Assembly (NCBI GenBank): GCA_037137655.1 | Contig: JBAXJX010000001.1 | Coordinates: 289,188-353,187 of the forward strand | DNA from: Candidatus Falkowbacteria bacterium | GTDB lineage: Bacteria > Patescibacteriota > Patescibacteriia > Patescibacteriales > UBA12465 | DNA length: 64,000 nucleotides | Direction of reading: 5' to 3' | In this document: in pieces, positions 3,234 to 51,722 of the stretch | Position numbering within the stretch: the first letter of the stretch is position 1 | How the letters are laid out: the number at the start of each line of letters is the position of its first letter | Made by a program: the position numbers and the translations under genes | The notes under the pieces: model-generated | The model's database searches: none | Seen by the model: the letters and a program-made list of their open reading frames with translations, nothing else | What the model was told of the DNA's origin: nothing

Positions 3234-5798
3234 ATGAATACAGACATTTCCCCAAATGTTTTAAGTGACGGCGTCCAGCAAGGTATTAATACCTATGCTA
3301 ATTTAAATACGGCTTATTTAGCTCTATTTATTGTCGCTATAATCGTTTTGGTTGTAATCTTTAGAAAAATCTTTACTTCAATTTCAATTCAAAACAGCAT
3401 GAATGATTATGCTGTTTTTTTAGTGCGTTTACCAAAGGAAAAGCCAAAAGATGACGGTGGTTCGAAAGATTTGTCAGTTCAACAAGTGCGTGAAGATATT
3501 TCTTTGGCGGAAACAATATTTGCCAGCATTGGTGGTATGCGACCGCAACATGGATTTATGCCGTGGCTTTTTGGTCGCAGTGACAATTTTTCTTTTGAAG
3601 TGGTGGCTCATGCCGGCAAGATTTCTTTTTATGTAGCCGCGCCAAAAGAATCAGCTCTATATTTAGAGCAACAAATCAACGCTTATTACCCTGAGGCGAG
3701 CGTGGAAGAAATTCCTGATTACAATGCCTTTAATCCACAAAATAGTATTGCGGCTGGCTCCTTGAAGCCGGTGCGTGGTTTTATGTTTCCTTTTAAAACT
3801 TATAATGATATGGAGTCGGATCCGATGAATTCACTGATTAATATCATCTCAAAAATGGAGCCACAAAATAGTATTAGTATTCAATATGTGGTTCGCTCCG
3901 CTGAAGGTGGTTGGCATAGTGTTGTAAAAAGAGCCGTACTTAATGCTTATAACAACAAGAGTGTGAGTGATATTTTTCACAGTGGCAACAACATGTTATC
4001 TGGTTTTGCTAGTTTTATAATTTATCATATTATTGGTGGTATATTTGGCGCAGTGGAGCCGAAGGACAAAAATAGCATGGAGAAAAAAGTTAATACTAAG
4101 GAGTTGACTGACAAGGAGAAAGAAATGTTGAAAAAAATGGAAGAGAAAAATTCTAAAGCTGGTTTGGATACCAATATCCGAATCGTGGTTAGTGCGACTA
4201 ATAAAATTCAAGCGAAGTCATATTTAGAAAATGTTGTAAACGCTTTTACTGAGTACAATTATTATACATATGGCAATAGTTTTAAAAAAGGTTTGGGATC
4301 GGCGCAACAAAATAAATTAATTAATCATTTTATTTATCGTCGTTTTATTCCAGAAAAAGGCTTTATTTTAAGTACGGAAGAATTGGCGAGTATGTATCAT
4401 TTTCCACTCCCACACACTGAAACGCCAAATATTGATTGGTTGTTATCTAAAACCGCACCAGCTCCAACTAATACTCCGCAAGAAGGAATTAATTTGGGTT
4501 ACAATTTGTTCCGCGGTCACAAAACTGATATTCGAATTAAACGCGTTGATCGTCGTCGTCATTGTTACATTGTTGGTAAATCTGGTACTGGTAAATCGGT
4601 CGAATTATTAAACATGGCGATTCAAGACATTGAAAATGGTGATGGTGTTTGCGTAATGGATCCAAACGGTGACTTGATTGAAGATATTTTAAATCGCATT
4701 CCACCACATCGTGCTGAGGATGTAATTGTCTTTTCTCCGGGTGATTTGGAGCGACCACTCGCTATGAATTTGTTGGAATATGATGAACGCTACCCAGAAC
4801 AAAAGAGCTTTGTGATTAATGAGGTGATTGGGATCTTTGATAAGTTGTATGATTTGAAGGCGACTGGTGGTCCGATTTTTGAACAATACATGCGCAATGC
4901 TTTGTTGTTAATTATGGATGATCCGGAATCCGGTTCGACCTTAATGGAAATTCCAAAAGTTTTGGCGGACGAAGATTTCCGTCGCATGAAATTATCACGT
5001 TGTAAAAATCCAACCGTGGTTGATTTTTGGCGCAAGGAAGCGGAGAAGGCGGGCGGAGAAGCGGCTCTAGCTAATATTGTGCCGTACATCACTTCGAAAT
5101 TAACTCCATTCGTGGCCAATGATATGATGCGTCCGATTATTGGGCAACAAAAAAGTTCCTTTAATATGCGCGACATAATGGATAACAAAAAAATCTTGAT
5201 GGTGGATTTGCCGAAGGGTTTAATTGGTGAAACTAATGCTTATCTTTTGGGTATGATTATTGTTGGTAAGATTTTAATGGCCGCTCTTAGTCGCACCGAT
5301 ATGCCAGCGGAAAAGCGGAATGATTTTTATTTATACATTGATGAGTTTCAAAACTTTACCACAAATTCGATTTGTCAGATTTTATCCGAAGCTCGAAAAT
5401 ATGCGTTGTGTTTAACCGTGGCCCATCAATATATTGGTCAGTTAAGCAAAGGTCAGGATGCTCAAATTAAAGATGCGATTTTTGGTAACGTTGGAACACT
5501 GATGAGCTTTAAAGTTGGTTCTGAAGATGCTGATTTCTTGGTAAAAGATTTTGGTCCAGTTTTCAATCAATTTGATTTAACTAATGTCGGTCGTGGTGGC
5601 TTTATGAAATTATTAGTTGATGGCAGCACCACTCGTCCTTTTTCCTTCCAAACTATTTGGCCCTTACTTGGTAATTACAATGAAGGTTTATCTCAAAAAA
5701 TTCGGGCTCTAAGTCGTTATAAATTCGGCCAAGATCGTCGTTTAATTGAAATGGAGATTGCGCGGCGCGCTAAAGCGACTGTTTCGACTGATTTTTAA
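3234..5798 (+). CDS. TraD/TraG/VirD4-like coupling-protein-type P-loop ATPase (FtsK/HerA superfamily), membrane anchored
   Basis: 854 aa. N-terminal TM (LALFIVAIIVLVVIF), Walker A GKSGTGKS, Walker B-like LYIDEFQNF, then CLTVAHQY. Confidence 0.8.
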   Translation: MNTDISPNVLSDGVQQGINTYANLNTAYLALFIVAIIVLVVIFRKIFTSISIQNSMNDYAVFLVRLPKEKPKDDGGSKDLSVQQVREDISLAETIFASIGGMRPQHGFMPWLFGRSDNFSFEVVAHAGKISFYVAAPKESALYLEQQINAYYPEASVEEIPDYNAFNPQNSIAAGSLKPVRGFMFPFKTYNDMESDPMNSLINIISKMEPQNSISIQYVVRSAEGGWHSVVKRAVLNAYNNKSVSDIFHSGNNMLSGFASFIIYHIIGGIFGAVEPKDKNSMEKKVNTKELTDKEKEMLKKMEEKNSKAGLDTNIRIVVSATNKIQAKSYLENVVNAFTEYNYYTYGNSFKKGLGSAQQNKLINHFIYRRFIPEKGFILSTEELASMYHFPLPHTETPNIDWLLSKTAPAPTNTPQEGINLGYNLFRGHKTDIRIKRVDRRRHCYIVGKSGTGKSVELLNMAIQDIENGDGVCVMDPNGDLIEDILNRIPPHRAEDVIVFSPGDLERPLAMNLLEYDERYPEQKSFVINEVIGIFDKLYDLKATGGPIFEQYMRNALLLIMDDPESGSTLMEIPKVLADEDFRRMKLSRCKNPTVVDFWRKEAEKAGGEAALANIVPYITSKLTPFVANDMMRPIIGQQKSSFNMRDIMDNKKILMVDLPKGLIGETNAYLLGMIIVGKILMAALSRTDMPAEKRNDFYLYIDEFQNFTTNSICQILSEARKYALCLTVAHQYIGQLSKGQDAQIKDAIFGNVGTLMSFKVGSEDADFLVKDFGPVFNQFDLTNVGRGGFMKLLVDGSTTRPFSFQTIWPLLGNYNEGLSQKIRALSRYKFGQDRRLIEMEIARRAKATVSTDF

Positions 5799-7305: not shown

Positions 7306-7424
7306 ATTTATTGCTAACTTTTTATAATTTAAAAAAATGAAACATAGTATAAAGCTATTATTAGTGATTATTTTGCCAGCATTATTTTTATCGGGGTGTA
7401 GCGCTGTTAACATTCAAACACAAA
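7274..7424 (+). repeat. Junction repeat copy A (gene 3' end + intergenic + lipoprotein signal peptide)
   Basis: 7274-7348 is identical (75 nt) to 8079-8153. Similarity continues, degraded, to about 7424/8229. Confidence 0.9.
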
Positions 7425-8110
7425 TAACTGCAAACAATGATAATTCCTCTGATTGTCCAAAAACTGTTAAATATGATGGTGGTGCTTATGATCAAGGTGG
7501 AGGAAATGGGATTTTTGGTGGTTATTATCGAACTGTTAAAATTGGAACTCAATGTTGGCTTAAGGATAATTTAAATGTTGGCACGATGATAAAAGGAACT
7601 ATTGATCAGTCTGACAATAAAATCATTGAGAAGTATTGTTATGATAACAATTCTGGCGGTTGCGATGCTAATGGTGGGCTATATCAATGGGATGAAGCTA
7701 TGCAATATTATGGCAGTAGTAGTGTTAATTTTGATAATAGTGGTAATCCGCTTAAAAATGTCCAGGGTATCTGTCCATCTGGTTGGCATATTCCGAATGA
7801 TGTTGACTGGAAAGCTATGATTAAATACTTAGGCGGTGATGATGTGGCTGGTGATAAATTAAAGGCAGCTTCAGTTTGGGGTGATAAGGCTAATAACTCT
7901 TCTGGATTTTCAGCTTTGCCAAGTGGTCAATTTTTTGGTGAACGAGGTTTTGTGGCGATGTATGGTAAGTTTTTTCTTCAAGGTTCTGGTGCTGTTTTTT
8001 GGTCATCATCATATAATTCCAGGTGGACTTTATTAAAAGATGATTCTAAATTTGATCTTGGCAACAAAATTAGCACTCATGGTCTTTCCATTCGTTGTAT
8101 AAAAGATTAA
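7337..8110 (+). CDS. Lipoprotein with FISUMP-type domain
   Basis: 257 aa. Lipobox LPALFLSG/C. Motifs CWLKDNLNVG, GGLYQWDEAM, GICPSGWHIPNDVDW, AGDKLKA, SGFSALPSG, FWSSS, LSIRCIKD. Confidence 0.85.
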   Translation: MKHSIKLLLVIILPALFLSGCSAVNIQTQITANNDNSSDCPKTVKYDGGAYDQGGGNGIFGGYYRTVKIGTQCWLKDNLNVGTMIKGTIDQSDNKIIEKYCYDNNSGGCDANGGLYQWDEAMQYYGSSSVNFDNSGNPLKNVQGICPSGWHIPNDVDWKAMIKYLGGDDVAGDKLKAASVWGDKANNSSGFSALPSGQFFGERGFVAMYGKFFLQGSGAVFWSSSYNSRWTLLKDDSKFDLGNKISTHGLSIRCIKD

Positions 8111-8229
8111 ATTTATTGCTAACTTTTTATAATTTAAAAAAATGAAACATAGTTTAAAAATATTACTAGGCATTATTTTGCCAGCATTATTTTTGTCGGG
8201 GTGTAGTGCTGTAAGCATACAAACACAAA
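8079..8229 (+). repeat. Junction repeat copy B
   Basis: Offset of 805 bp from copy A, with the same 75-nt identical core spanning the stop codon, the 31-nt spacer and the ATG. Confidence 0.9.
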
Positions 8230-8747
8230 CCATGGCCGATGGTGATGTTGCGCAAATTCCAGTTAAAAGTCAGACAGCTTCTTCTGATGAGCGTCAAGTT
8301 GATCAAGTATCTGTAAATGATAAGCAAAAAATTGTTCAAGATCGACCAGCTGGAGTTAACGTTCCCGCTAAGGCTGGTTTGAGTATTGATGGATTAAAAG
8401 TTGGTGATAGATACAATAGGGACTTTATGATTATTAAAATTTTGCCACTTGATAAAGCTAGACCGGTGGGTGATGATAATTTTGCAATTTCTTATGCTGG
8501 CATGACCTCTGTTACTGGTAATTATACTTGTGATCCTTCTGGTTTTTCAACCCTAATTCCGGATACTATGGAAGGGTTGCCAATTATATCTGGTAGTAAT
8601 TCTTATGATATTCTTTTCCCTAAAGCGCACTGCAATAAGTTTCCTAAAAATCATGCGACAATTACTTTTAAAGATTTTGTTTTGCAATCTGTTGGTGATG
8701 ATATTACAGCTTACTCTAATGAAATTTTAGTCGAGCTTTTTAAATAG
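8142..8747 (+). CDS. Lipoprotein, unknown function (paralog of ORF 23344-23877)
   Basis: 201 aa. Signal/lipobox nearly identical to the preceding gene. The mature domain shares VTGNY...PDTMxGLP...FPK...ATI...VLQS with ORF 23344-23877. Confidence 0.8.
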   Translation: MKHSLKILLGIILPALFLSGCSAVSIQTQTMADGDVAQIPVKSQTASSDERQVDQVSVNDKQKIVQDRPAGVNVPAKAGLSIDGLKVGDRYNRDFMIIKILPLDKARPVGDDNFAISYAGMTSVTGNYTCDPSGFSTLIPDTMEGLPIISGSNSYDILFPKAHCNKFPKNHATITFKDFVLQSVGDDITAYSNEILVELFK

Positions 8748-10495: not shown

Positions 10496-11767
10496 ATGTT
10501 AGATTTAAAATTTATCCGCGAAAATGCGGAATTGGTAAAAAAGAATTGTGCGGATCGCTTGGTTAATGTGAATGTTGATTTGCTTTTGGAGCTTGATGCA
10601 AAAAAACGCGAGACCGAGAATGCGATTGATAATTTGCGCGCCGAACGTAATAAATTTTCTAAAACAAAACCAACGCCGGAAATTATTGAACAGATGAAAG
10701 CGGTGGGTGAACAGATTAAGGAAAAAGAAGAAGAGTTGATTGGTTTGGAAATCGGCGTGAAAGAAATTTGGTATTCTATTCCAAATTTAACTCATCCGGA
10801 TGTGCATGTGTCTGACAACGAAGATGACAATCCAGTTTTGGAAATTTTTAAAGAGCCGACTAAGTTTGTTTTTACACCAAAAGATCATGTGGAAATTGCC
10901 GAGGCTTTAGACTTGGTAGATTTTGATCGCGCCACTAAAGTTTCGGGAGCCAAGTTTTATTATTTGAAAAATGAATTAGCGTTAATGGAATTCGCTTTAA
11001 TTCAATACGCGCTCGAGATTGCTTTGAAACATGGCTTTACGCCGATGACTACTCCGGATATTGCCAAGCGGGAAGTGTTGGAAGGTTTAGGCTTTAATCC
11101 CCGCGGTGAATCAACCCAGATTTATAATATTGAAAATTCCGATTTAAGTTTAATTGGAACGGCTGAAATTACTTTGGGTGGTTTACATCAAGAAGAAGTT
11201 TTTGCGCCAATTGAATTGCCGAAAAAATATATCGGTGTGTCACATTGTTTCCGCACTGAAGCGGGATCTTATTCTAAATTTTCCAAAGGTATTTTCCGTG
11301 TCCACCAATTTACTAAGATTGAAATGTTTGCTTACGCCATGCCGGAAGACAGTGAAAAAGTCCATCAAGAATTATTGGCAGTGGAAAAAGCTATCTTTGG
11401 CGGCTTAGATATTCCATTCCGCGTCATTGATCATTGTACGGCTGATTTGGGCGGTCCATCAATTCGGACTTATGATTTAGAAGCCTGGATGCCAGGGAAG
11501 CCGGCAGCGAGCGGGGAAATGGGAGAATGGGGAGAAATTACCTCGACTTCCAATTGTACTGATTACCAAGCCCGGGGACTAAATATTAAATATAAAGATG
11601 CTGATGGTAATAAAGGTTTTGTTCATACCTTGAATGGCACCGCAATTGCGATTACCCGCGCCATGATCGCCATTTTGGAAAATTACCAACAAGCTGATGG
11701 TTCTGTGTTAATTCCCGAAGCTTTACAGAAATATTTCCCAAATAATTTGAAAGAAATTAGAAGATAA
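10496..11767 (+). CDS. serS: Seryl-tRNA synthetase
   Basis: 423 aa. N-terminal coiled-coil arm and class II core (HCFRTEAGS, LNGTAIAITRAMIAILENYQ). Confidence 0.97.
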   Translation: MLDLKFIRENAELVKKNCADRLVNVNVDLLLELDAKKRETENAIDNLRAERNKFSKTKPTPEIIEQMKAVGEQIKEKEEELIGLEIGVKEIWYSIPNLTHPDVHVSDNEDDNPVLEIFKEPTKFVFTPKDHVEIAEALDLVDFDRATKVSGAKFYYLKNELALMEFALIQYALEIALKHGFTPMTTPDIAKREVLEGLGFNPRGESTQIYNIENSDLSLIGTAEITLGGLHQEEVFAPIELPKKYIGVSHCFRTEAGSYSKFSKGIFRVHQFTKIEMFAYAMPEDSEKVHQELLAVEKAIFGGLDIPFRVIDHCTADLGGPSIRTYDLEAWMPGKPAASGEMGEWGEITSTSNCTDYQARGLNIKYKDADGNKGFVHTLNGTAIAITRAMIAILENYQQADGSVLIPEALQKYFPNNLKEIRR

Positions 11768-11787
11768 CTGAAGAATACTAAGAATAT

Positions 11788-11819
11788 AAAAACCACTTTT
11801 TAAAAAAAAGTGGTTTTTT
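11788..11819 (+). terminator. Rho-independent terminator after serS
   Basis: aaaaaccac ... gtggttttt hairpin followed by a T-run. Confidence 0.75.
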
Positions 11820-11843
11820 GTTAAAATAATCATCGTAAGCTTA

Positions 11844-12200
11844 CTTATGAAATACCGCACCTGAAGCGGGCGAAGCTTTCTTGGAAAATTTGAGCGTTAG
11901 CGAAATTTTTTCAAAAAGATTTGCACGCTTCACCCCACACAGTTAACGGCATTCTACCGAAGATTATTAAAAGCACCATTTTCTTTTTATATTAATAAAT
12001 AACCGTCTTCTCAGTCTTCGGTATCTCGGCTTGAATAAGCTAATCTATATAATTTCGCTTCGTCTTTCGACTTCGCTTTCTTCAACGCTTTTATCTTCTG
12101 GGGCGAATCTGGCAAAACTTTTGAAAAAAGATCTCACTAACGTTCGAACTTTTTTAAAAGTTTCGTCCAGCTTCGGATACGGTGGCTCGGTGAGGGCTTT
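11844..12200. repeat. Nested-hairpin intergenic element, copy 1 (MITE-like or structured RNA/ssDNA element)
   Basis: Two ~75-nt arms (11860-11937, 12099-12185) are inverted copies of each other, and each is a hairpin. Core 11860-12022 is the reverse complement of 51030-51192 (151/163 identical, ungapped, hand count). Confidence 0.85.
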
Positions 12201-12208
12201 TTACTTGA

Positions 12209-12237
12209 TTGACAAAACATTATTAAATTAGTAATAT
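12209..12237 (+). promoter_or_regulatory. Sigma70-type promoter TTGACA-N17-TAATAT
   Basis: ttgaca 12209-12214, taatat 12232-12237; upstream of the DUF488 gene. Confidence 0.65.
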
Positions 12238-12271
12238 TTTATATTCTTTAACAATTTAACAGCGTTGTATT

Positions 12272-12667
12272 ATGTTAAAAACTAGATGTATTAAAAGTAC
12301 CCGGCAAACTGATGATGGCTGGCGCATTTCTATTATGAGTCGACATACTAAGAATGATGGCGTTACTCCTGATGAAGATATCACTAACGATTCTTATGAT
12401 GAGTGGTGGTCGAAATTAAGCCCGGCGCCAAAATTAGTTGGTGATTATTATCGAGGAACTTTATCTTGGGAAGATTTTGCCATAAAATTCAACGAATTTC
12501 TAAAGCAACCAAACACTCATGATAAGCTAATGGTATTAGTTAGCTTGGCAAAAGTTAGGAATATTACTATTTTATGTATAGAAGATGGTCCGGAATATTG
12601 TCATCGGCGATTAGTGGCTGAAAGGTGCTTAGAGTTAGATAACACACTAGAACTTGTTATCGAATGA
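12272..12667 (+). CDS. DUF488 family protein
   Basis: 131 aa. W..LSPAPKL, W..F...F...L and ILCIE.....CHRRLVAE are the DUF488 pattern. TGA stop. Confidence 0.8.
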   Translation: MLKTRCIKSTRQTDDGWRISIMSRHTKNDGVTPDEDITNDSYDEWWSKLSPAPKLVGDYYRGTLSWEDFAIKFNEFLKQPNTHDKLMVLVSLAKVRNITILCIEDGPEYCHRRLVAERCLELDNTLELVIE

Positions 12668-50568: not shown

Positions 50569-50808
50569 ATGTACCACCTCTACATCCTCCAATGTGCTGA
50601 TAAAAGTTTGTATACTGGCATCACGGTTGATTTGGTGCGGCGAGTAAGGGAACATAATAGTTCGAAGCTCGGCGCGAAGTACACTAAAATGCGGCGGCCG
50701 GTGCAATTGGTTTACAGTGAAGAATTTGCTGATCGCAGCGCGGCGAGCAAGGCGGAATACGAGATGAAGCAATTGACGCGGGAGCAGAAATTAAAATTGA
50801 TAAAATAG
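50569..50808 (+). CDS. GIY-YIG nuclease-family protein (UPF0213/YhbQ-like)
   Basis: 79 aa. YILQCADKSLYTGITVDLVRRVREHN...GAKYTKMRRPVQLVYSEEF. Confidence 0.88.
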   Translation: MYHLYILQCADKSLYTGITVDLVRRVREHNSSKLGAKYTKMRRPVQLVYSEEFADRSAASKAEYEMKQLTREQKLKLIK

Positions 50809-50848: not shown

Positions 50849-50867
50849 TTCACCTCGCCTAAAGCCT

Positions 50868-51205
50868 CTTATGAAACATTGCATCTGAAGCGAGTCGAGA
50901 CTTTTTACGGGAAATGTAGCCGCTAGGCGAATTTCGCGGAAAAAGGGCTCGATCGATTCGCCCAAGCGTAAAAAAGCTATTAAGTAAACGGAGTGAAATT
51001 ATATAGATTAGACTATTAAAATTGACGTGACCGAAGACTGAAAAAACGGTTATTTATTAATATAAAAAGAAAATAGCGCTTTTAATAATCTCCGGTAGAA
51101 TACCGTTAATTATGTGGGGCGAAGCGTGCAAATCTTTTTGAAAAGATTTCGCTAACGCTCAACCTTTCCAAGAAAGCTTCGCCCGCTTCAGGTACGGCAT
51201 TTTAG
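50868..51205. repeat. Nested-hairpin intergenic element, copy 2 (core inverted relative to copy 1)
   Basis: 51030-51192 is the reverse complement of 11860-12022 (151/163). The remainder is diverged but keeps the same hairpin skeleton. Confidence 0.85.
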
Positions 51206-51226
51206 GGAAGGCCACTGTTTAAAAAC

Positions 51227-51255
51227 TTGACATAAATCAAAAACTATGATAAAAA
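51227..51255 (+). promoter_or_regulatory. Promoter TTGACA-N17(TGa)-TAAAAA
   Basis: ttgaca 51227-51232; tga+taaaaa 51247-51255. Confidence 0.5.
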
Positions 51256-51302
51256 ATAGGTAATTAAATTTTCGAACATTCACAATTTAAATTATAGAAA
51301 TA

Positions 51303-51674
51303 ATGAAAAAGAAAAGTTTTTTATTGCTCACCGGCGCACTTATGATTGTCGCCTTTATTTGTTATCTAAGTGGTTATCATACAACCATTGTAATACGTCT
51401 AACTTTGAGTTTGCTTATCGGTCTGATAGCTGGTTTAATAGCAAATTTTTTTACCAGTGTTAGTGTGGTAGATTTGGTTGAACACGATAATCCGCTTAAA
51501 ATTGGAAAAATGCTTTTAGTTGGAATTATCGTTGGTGCGATCATGGCTCTTATTAATTATGGTTTTTATCACCAAGAATCTTTCGTTCTTTTTATCGGCT
51601 CGGTAATTGGCACTTTAATTAGCTGCTCTTACAAACAAGAAGACGATGACGAAGAAAAAGGTGGAAATATATAG
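51303..51674 (+). CDS. Small integral membrane protein, unknown function
   Basis: 123 aa, four TM helices, acidic C-terminal tail (QEDDDEEKGG). Confidence 0.65.
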   Translation: MKKKSFLLLTGALMIVAFICYLSGYHTTIVIRLTLSLLIGLIAGLIANFFTSVSVVDLVEHDNPLKIGKMLLVGIIVGAIMALINYGFYHQESFVLFIGSVIGTLISCSYKQEDDDEEKGGNI

Positions 51675-51688
51675 AATTTTTTCTCTCT

Positions 51689-51722
51689 AAGCCATATTAC
51701 ATTTTGTAGTGTGGCTTTTTTA
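51689..51722 (+). terminator. Rho-independent terminator
   Basis: aagccatattac atttt gtagtgtggctt (two G.U) followed by a T-run. Confidence 0.7.

Follow-up and report, generated by a model that had tools for sequence, protein, structure and literature searches.

The window analysed here, a 64-kb stretch of DNA (64,000 nucleotides, 36% GC) in which nearly all genes lie on one strand, raises the question of what kind of entity occupies the spacer between serS (10496-11767) and the downstream DUF488 gene (12272-12667), both identified by Pfam annotation. The initial annotation had singled out positions 11844-12200 of this spacer as one of two copies of a nested-hairpin element, either MITE-like or a structured RNA or ssDNA, and had proposed a search for copies beyond the window, an assessment of covariation in the hairpins, and a comparison of the orthologous serS-DUF488 spacers of relatives for presence or absence of the element and for target-site duplications. 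Prokaryotic MITEs are small intergenic elements with terminal inverted repeats (TIRs) that carry no transposase and have stable stem-loops predicted for their transcripts (PMC11602168; PMC10969869). The best named homologues of SerS and ThrRS come from Falkowbacteria, Moranbacteria and Parcubacteria, and the host is therefore a member of the Patescibacteria (CPR).

Architecture of the element in the serS spacer

The element lies, as annotated, between a rho-independent terminator and a consensus promoter, both of which were found and both of which are outside it. The left flank is the serS terminator (11788-11819, plus strand; 11788-11818 in the stem scan), a 14-bp perfect stem followed by a T run, and the right flank is the promoter of the DUF488 gene (TTGACA-17-TAATAT, 12209-12237, plus strand); in two relatives, L032 and L033, the terminator is kept and a homologous promoter stands directly 3' of it. 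An element is indeed present in the annotated interval, and all coordinates given for its features were confirmed, with a small correction to its extent: the segment that is missing from the orthologous spacer of two relatives spans 11824-12197 (plus strand), reaching slightly further to the left. The resulting long form of 374 bp falls within the 50-800 bp size range of MITEs.

The left outer segment (ATCATCGTAAGCTT...TGAAAT, 11824-11853, plus strand), defined by alignment with the left ends of two elements from other contigs, L039 and L042 (see below), contains a -10-like box (11848-11853) that precedes the hairpin by 7 nt; according to the same alignment, the terminal GCCCTCACCGAG motif is absent from this end. 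The left arm (11860-11937, plus strand; covariance-model match of 95 bits) is a 78-nt imperfect hairpin with an apical C(GUUA)G, in which the 30 nt at 11862-11891 pair with 11903-11932 across an 11-nt loop, with 77% complementarity; its minimum free energy is -28.1 kcal/mol (z -4.1) on the plus strand and -20.1 on the minus strand. Between the arms lies an AT-rich core of ~160 nt (11938-12098, plus strand, 35% GC) with a conserved block, TAACGGCATTCTACCGAAGATTAT (11944-11967), that is common to copy 1, copy 2 and L039, and with a TATAAT at 12048-12053. Direct reading of the sequence also confirms the central hairpin noted earlier in the core, formed by accgaaga (11956-11963) and tcttcggt (12015-12022). 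The right arm (12099-12177, minus strand; 89.8 bits) is a 79-nt imperfect hairpin and an inverted copy of the left arm, with 12104-12133 pairing with 12146-12175 (30 nt, 73% complementary) and a minimum free energy of -28.4 (z -5.3) on the minus strand and -21.9 on the plus strand. It is followed by a 13-nt terminal motif, AGCCCTCACCGAG (12186-12198, minus strand), which a motif search also locates at the ends of the L039 and L042 elements; the motif, as AGCCCTCACCGAG / CTCGGTGAGGGCT, is common to several copies.

Two claims of the initial annotation, that the arms are mutually inverted and that each is itself a long hairpin, are both borne out: the arms are 75.7% identical over 74 nt by blastn and 72.5% identical in global alignment, and both stems were located. 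The loop motif is asymmetric, with GAGCGTTAGCGA in the left arm and GAACGTTAGTGA in the right arm once reverse-complemented, and thus fixes the orientation of the arms. Local alignment of 11854-11945 against 12183-12092 gives a terminal inverted repeat of ~92 nt with ~74% identity, so that, against the TIR of at least 10-15 bp by which MITEs are recognised, we find a ~92-nt repeat and the 13-nt terminal motif, the latter missing at the left end of copy 1. A pattern abstracted from the arms has exactly four matches in the window, one per arm, and none in 100 shuffles. The GC content of the arms is 39-52% versus 36% for the genome, unlike that of a textbook AT-rich MITE.

A second copy and mosaic divergence

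The annotated second copy was recovered as another long form at approximately 50853-51215 on the minus strand (88% identity to copy 1 over 215 nt by blastn, supported by alignment and by the independent assembly L050), between the terminator of a gene for a 79-aa GIY-YIG protein and the promoter of a 123-aa membrane ORF. Folding, the covariance model and alignment place its right arm, a subtype B hairpin, at 50885-50965 (plus strand), and its left arm, of subtype A, occupies 51115-51192 (minus strand). Between the two copies, the left arms are 94.9% identical, the cores 77% and the right arms 58%, and the right arm of copy 2 is 77% identical to the left arm of L039; the core outside the conserved block is missing altogether from L042. 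Judged by these alignments, the arms belong to at least two subtypes that occur in differing combinations, the right arms of copies 1 and 2 differing in subtype. These differing combinations suggest that exchange among family members is behind the mosaic divergence.

Copies 1 and 2 are not an assembly artefact. An independent ENA assembly, L050, reads through copy 2 with 99.97% identity, and Logan contigs matching the window at 100% have their ends within the shared repeat, one stopping at 11873 and others starting at 12136 and 51164. A practical consequence is that the repeat breaks short-read assemblies at both loci.

Several other features of the window and of the copy 2 locus were recorded. 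The GIY-YIG domain adjoining copy 2 is a stand-alone 79-aa ORF (50569-50808) whose orthologue adjoins the mini element of L042, and in L046 (GCA_023246935.1) the contig ends just within an ORF at the position orthologous to the GIY-YIG site. The 123-aa membrane ORF (51303-51674, in the region 51216-51722) is served by a TTGACA promoter and a terminator of its own; L042 does not have it, and only 243 bp separate the GIY-YIG and sigma-70 genes there. The variable segment at this locus is bracketed by TTTTTTATT(T) runs both in the window and in L042. Elsewhere in the window, a 106-nt direct duplication (7319-7424 and 8124-8229, 89.6% identical) covers the 5' ends of the adjacent ORFs 7337-8110 and 8142-8747, which are probably tandem paralogues.

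Filled and empty orthologous sites

The comparison of orthologous spacers revealed the presence/absence polymorphism that the initial annotation had proposed to look for. The serS spacer carries no element in L032 (SerS 95% identical) or in L033/L034 (SerS 87% identical); these empty sites read GGTTTTTTGTT[A/G]TGTG[G/A]TTGACAAAA, with the terminator abutting the TTGACAAAA promoter (TTGACA). In local alignment, window 11717-11823 corresponds to L032 2403-2506 (89/107 identical positions) and window 12198-12248 to L032 2501-2554 (43/54), and the right flank in L033 is identical at 50/55 positions. The empty-site junction is precise, the window having 374 extra bases at 11824-12197. Filled and empty orthologous sites, by which the mobility of MITEs is recognised, are found at the serS spacer. 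Given that the segment is lacking in two relatives, an insertion in the lineage of the window is the parsimonious reading, and two independent deletions in the relatives are a less parsimonious source of the empty sites.

With respect to target-site duplications, the hexamer TTGTTA, which is single at the empty site of L032 (2501-2506), aligns to both edges of the insert, namely to TTGTTA at 11818-11823 on the left and, with one mismatch, to TTTTTA at 12198-12203 on the right. The pair is laid out as expected of a target-site duplication, but we rate it only as a 6-bp candidate because the hexamers are T-rich and lie in the T run of the terminator, where chance matches are likely. At the other sites checked, the flanks of L042 and of copy 2, there are only T runs.

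Related elements in other contigs

The search for copies beyond the window yielded two further elements, L039 and L042, and a remnant in L033. The arm-pattern scans of genomes and metagenomes relied on exact patterns and are accordingly insensitive: a stricter arm pattern produced eight chance matches and no relative among 185,579 representative genomes, and the arm pattern produced seven matches in JGI metagenomes, of which L039 alone is genuine. In viral contigs, the arm pattern had 21 matches, all GC-rich and due to chance, and the core motif had none; blastn against phage and plasmid collections gave no match. Searches of ~130 kb of related loci with nhmmer, the covariance model and motifs detected no additional copies. 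Altogether, there are two copies in the 64-kb window, and the related loci have one each or none.

The L039 element is a single partial copy on a metagenome contig of 35% GC, in an unrelated context. Reading inward, it consists of the terminal motif AGCCCTCACCGAG, which is the reverse complement of the right end of copy 1 (12186-12198), followed by ATCAACGTAAGCCTCTGATAAAATGACGTAT, a hairpin arm and the conserved block TAACGGTATTCTACCGAAGATTAT, after which the sequence diverges; the right arm is truncated. An ORF6N/Rha-like gene and a small ORF adjoin it; no transposase is present. On both sides of this element (L039 2300-2400 and 1985-2015), we observed a second repeat, shorter and characterised by small hairpins and the motif GTCATTC[TC][AG]GA, which may represent another intergenic repeat family of the clade.

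In the close relative L042, at the orthologue of the copy 2 site (ThrRS 96% identical), there is a 141-bp mini form (3802-3942) that has both terminal motifs, the outer box segment and one hairpin, and has no core. The 5' half of this hairpin resembles the left arm, and its base resembles the right arm of copy 1. The sequence TTTTTT(C/T)AAAAG occurs in both arms of the long form, so that a deletion between these repeats would turn the long form into the mini form; we infer that the mini form arose in this way. Finally, a 35-nt remnant, CCCTGAAGCGAAAGGGCTCGATCGCTTCGCCCCAG, was found in a different spacer of L033. Directly upstream of it, at L033 11770-11803, is a GC-rich hairpin (cAGCTCacagCGGttcgCCGccGAGCTa) in a spacer that is otherwise AT-rich.

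Hairpin conservation and strand asymmetry

The individual arms fold with energies of -27 to -33 kcal/mol (z -2.5 to -5.3 versus dinucleotide shuffles), and the hairpin is kept across six arms despite up to 40% sequence divergence. In the covariance-model alignment of these six arms, 86.8% of the cells are paired, compared with 35-57% after displacement of the 3' partners by 1-3 columns, the paired fraction being somewhat inflated because the alignment was fitted to the covariance model. The covariation sought by the initial annotation is apparent in the same alignment: seven pairs have changed on both sides, and the observed values were reached by 0/500 shuffles. The two left arms differ at four positions, which include one compensatory G-C/A-U exchange and one change from U-A to U-G. 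Simulation of four random substitutions leaves the direction of change undecidable, and the G-C/A-U exchange is therefore the only informative difference between the left arms.

Moreover, the hairpins are not equivalent on the two strands. Each of the five arms tested, those of the long forms and of L039, is more stable by 6.5-8.2 kcal/mol on the strand that is read inward from its end, that is, the plus strand for left arms and the minus strand for right arms. On the inward-read strand of the six arms, there are 13 G.T oppositions versus two A.C oppositions, counts that are non-independent owing to the shared ancestry of some arms. The apical loops on this strand are C(GUUA)G, C(GCUA)G or C(GAAA)G, with flanking G/A residues, in 5/6 arms. 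Since the favoured strand switches between the ends, a replication-strand mutation bias offers no explanation. The asymmetry points to a single-stranded function, which could involve an RNA read inward from each end or one strand of the DNA. Furthermore, a TAAAAT/TGAAAT/TGAAAC box stands 7 nt outside the hairpin at five of the seven ends examined, the five in which the outer segment is present.

Coding potential, promoters and known families

The initial view that the element contains neither a plausible ORF nor a transposase agrees with our results. The ORFs inside it are short, with no conservation between copies, and six-frame peptides from three copies, used as a concatenated query to pick up spurious ORF calls in further copies, matched nothing among 5.8 billion proteins. 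No transposase, integrase or autonomous element with the same ends was detected in the window or the related loci, including by Pfam analysis of the neighbours. An ORF of 66 aa with a TTG start (window 12031-12231) overlies the right arm; it has no homologue in the 5.8-billion-protein search and is not conserved in copy 2, and is most likely spurious. A small protein or type I toxin was rejected as well, the candidates being a 24-aa NGILPKIIKS frame and an antisense hydrophobic frame that have no conserved starts and differ in length between copies.

A consensus scan found no sigma-70 promoter inside either copy, although strong TTGACA boxes are used elsewhere in the genome, and a promoter within the element was rejected on this basis. 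Neither copy and none of the related loci matches an Rfam family at gathering or permissive thresholds, the best sub-threshold matches being to the neighbouring terminator or to microRNA-like hairpin noise, in line with the earlier remark that the element was not recognised as any named RNA or repeat family. A tRNA/tmRNA scan detected only an unrelated tRNA-Gln.

Other structured or mobile entities were rejected by specific features. A cis-regulatory leader of the downstream gene does not fit copy 2, which faces no downstream gene. An integron attC site would have R''/R' core sites (RYYYAAC ... GTTRRRY) at the hairpin bases, and these are missing, as is an integrase among the neighbours. In an IS200/IS605-type element, the hairpins of both ends would lie on the same strand and there would be no inverted repeats; here, one arm is an inverted copy of the other, and the strand of greater stability changes from end to end. 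REPs, retrons and DGR template repeats were dismissed, their defining features being absent and no reverse transcriptase or integrase being nearby.

Discussion

Dispersed copies, relatives with an empty site, compensatory changes in the hairpins, the lack of an Rfam match and the lack of a gene together bear out the choice offered by the initial annotation between a MITE-like element and a structured RNA or ssDNA. In our assessment, the element is probably MITE-like, a transposable or repeat element that is non-autonomous and belongs to a Patescibacteria (CPR) lineage, and most likely an additional example of a kind that is already known and not a new kind of RNA gene. The long form of ~370 bp would consist of ~92-nt imperfect TIRs around ~78-nt hairpins and a gene-less, AT-rich core of ~160 nt. 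This element would have inserted between the terminator and promoter of the serS-DUF488 spacer after the split from the nearest sampled relatives, presumably mobilised in trans by a transposase encoded elsewhere. Copy 1 has no left terminal motif and may, as a result, no longer be mobile. The hairpins would matter in single-stranded form, either as inward RNA from each end or as one DNA strand per end, and, once transcribed, the stem-loops could insulate or modulate neighbouring transcripts, as is the case for other bacterial MITEs.

Three other explanations have to be weighed against a MITE-like element. The first is a structured non-coding RNA locus, in which each end would combine a promoter-like box with a ~78-nt hairpin RNA, the two converging into the core, and the copies would be paralogous genes. 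The greater stability of five arms on the inward strand, the excess of wobble over A.C oppositions (13 to 2), the C(GUUA)G/C(GCUA)G/C(GAAA)G loops of 5/6 arms, the TAAAAT/TGAAAT box 7 nt upstream of the hairpin at 5/7 ends, and the covariation, including a G-C/A-U exchange among only four differences between the left arms, are all consistent with such genes. Maintenance of the palindrome at the DNA level could also give paired changes, however, and much else speaks against RNA genes: permissive thresholds still yield no Rfam match, the consensus scan finds no sigma-70 promoter inside the copies, no terminator follows the arms, the orientation relative to neighbouring genes differs between copies, and the architecture varies between one and two hairpins, with or without the core. 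Moreover, the locus is missing from relatives with 87-95% SerS identity, which would be unusual for a needed RNA, and we regard this explanation as unlikely. A low probability also attaches to the possibility that the arms are the decayed ends of a larger element, an autonomous IS or a carrier of cassettes, with copy 2 and the 123-aa ORF as the remains of a cargo unit and copy 1 as an internally deleted relic. The inverted repeats are unusually long and modular, the left terminus of copy 1 is truncated, neither the core nor the 123-aa ORF is present in L042 at the copy 2 locus, and the versions in the window and in L042 are both bracketed by TTTTTTATT(T) runs; yet these runs are ordinary terminator tails, the 123-aa ORF with its own promoter and terminator is like an ordinary small membrane protein, and neither the six-frame peptides nor Pfam analysis of the neighbours uncovered a transposase, an integrase or a pseudogene remnant.

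We consider it very improbable that the pair is merely a segmental duplication private to this genome, devoid of mobility and function, with palindromes that are due to chance. Such a duplication would fit the presence of only two copies in the window and of very few elsewhere despite large scans, but it is contradicted by the copies in different contexts on contigs of other organisms (L039 and L042), by the survival of the hairpin through 30-40% divergence with compensatory changes, and by the absence of the arm pattern from shuffled sequences and the precise empty-site junction. Finally, there is a slight chance that each end is a small RNA gene (TAAAAT box, ~78-nt hairpin and GNNA tip) and that the hairpin, as RNA or ssDNA, is active in an undescribed mobility mechanism for inverted-repeat elements; in a variant of this scheme, the RNA or ssDNA hairpin would be recognised by, or would guide, a recombinase whose gene lies elsewhere in these very small genomes.

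The preferred reading, a MITE-like element, is informed by comparison with known repeats. Like MITEs, which measure 50-800 bp, the element has TIRs and no transposase, is intergenic, has predicted very stable stem-loops and is present or absent between close relatives. It differs from them in that the target-site duplication is only a candidate, the sampled copy number is very low, no cognate IS was found in the window or related loci, and the inverted repeats are ~92 nt long, each forming a hairpin, with arms that are GC-richer than the genome. The closest analogues are the Correia and ERIC elements, which have long and short forms and function at the level of RNA. The ERIC (IRU) elements of enterobacteria, which are imperfect palindromes of ~127 bp in transcribed intergenic DNA with orientation-dependent effects on mRNA, have longer variants that arose through internal insertions at fixed points, and these variants recall the mini and long forms described here; ERIC is, however, a single palindrome without separate arms, belongs to another host phylum and has no sequence similarity to the present element. 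Correia elements likewise exist in long and internally deleted short forms. They resemble the present element as inverted-repeat elements located beside genes, with promoter-like boxes, but are shorter (100-155 bp) with 26-bp repeats, a TA duplication, an IHF site and more than 100 copies per genome; again the sequences are not similar, and the repeats of the present element are each a long hairpin in their own right. In Neisseria, the inverted repeats of the Correia elements (NEMIS) base-pair within RNA and are sites of RNase III cleavage (PMC10969869).

The IS200/IS605-derived PATEs share with our element sub-terminal hairpins, strand-specific single-stranded action and the lack of a clear target duplication, but the PATE hairpins are on one strand and the PATE ends are not inverted repeats, whereas here the arms are inverted and the favoured strand switches; furthermore, no Y1 transposase was seen with the element in the window and related loci. 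REPs and BIMEs are also extragenic palindromes that follow terminators and are mosaic and modular; unlike the rare ~78-nt arms described here, REPs are 20-40 nt long, occur in hundreds of copies and are linked to RAYT transposases. What seems unusual about the present element is the combination of ~92-nt repeats that are themselves long hairpins with a consistent strand asymmetry.

A full-text literature search for MITEs in the Patescibacteria (CPR) retrieved no description of any. Were the element an ordinary MITE, a well-known class would gain one further family; there is a small chance that the hairpin ends reflect a mechanism based on RNA or ssDNA, which would be much more interesting. An inverted-repeat element that is polymorphic and has no gene would demonstrate the movement of such repeats in the compact genomes of the CPR and would provide a marker for strain-level variation. 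Moreover, its strand-asymmetric hairpin ends can show whether elements of this type act via RNA or via single-stranded DNA.
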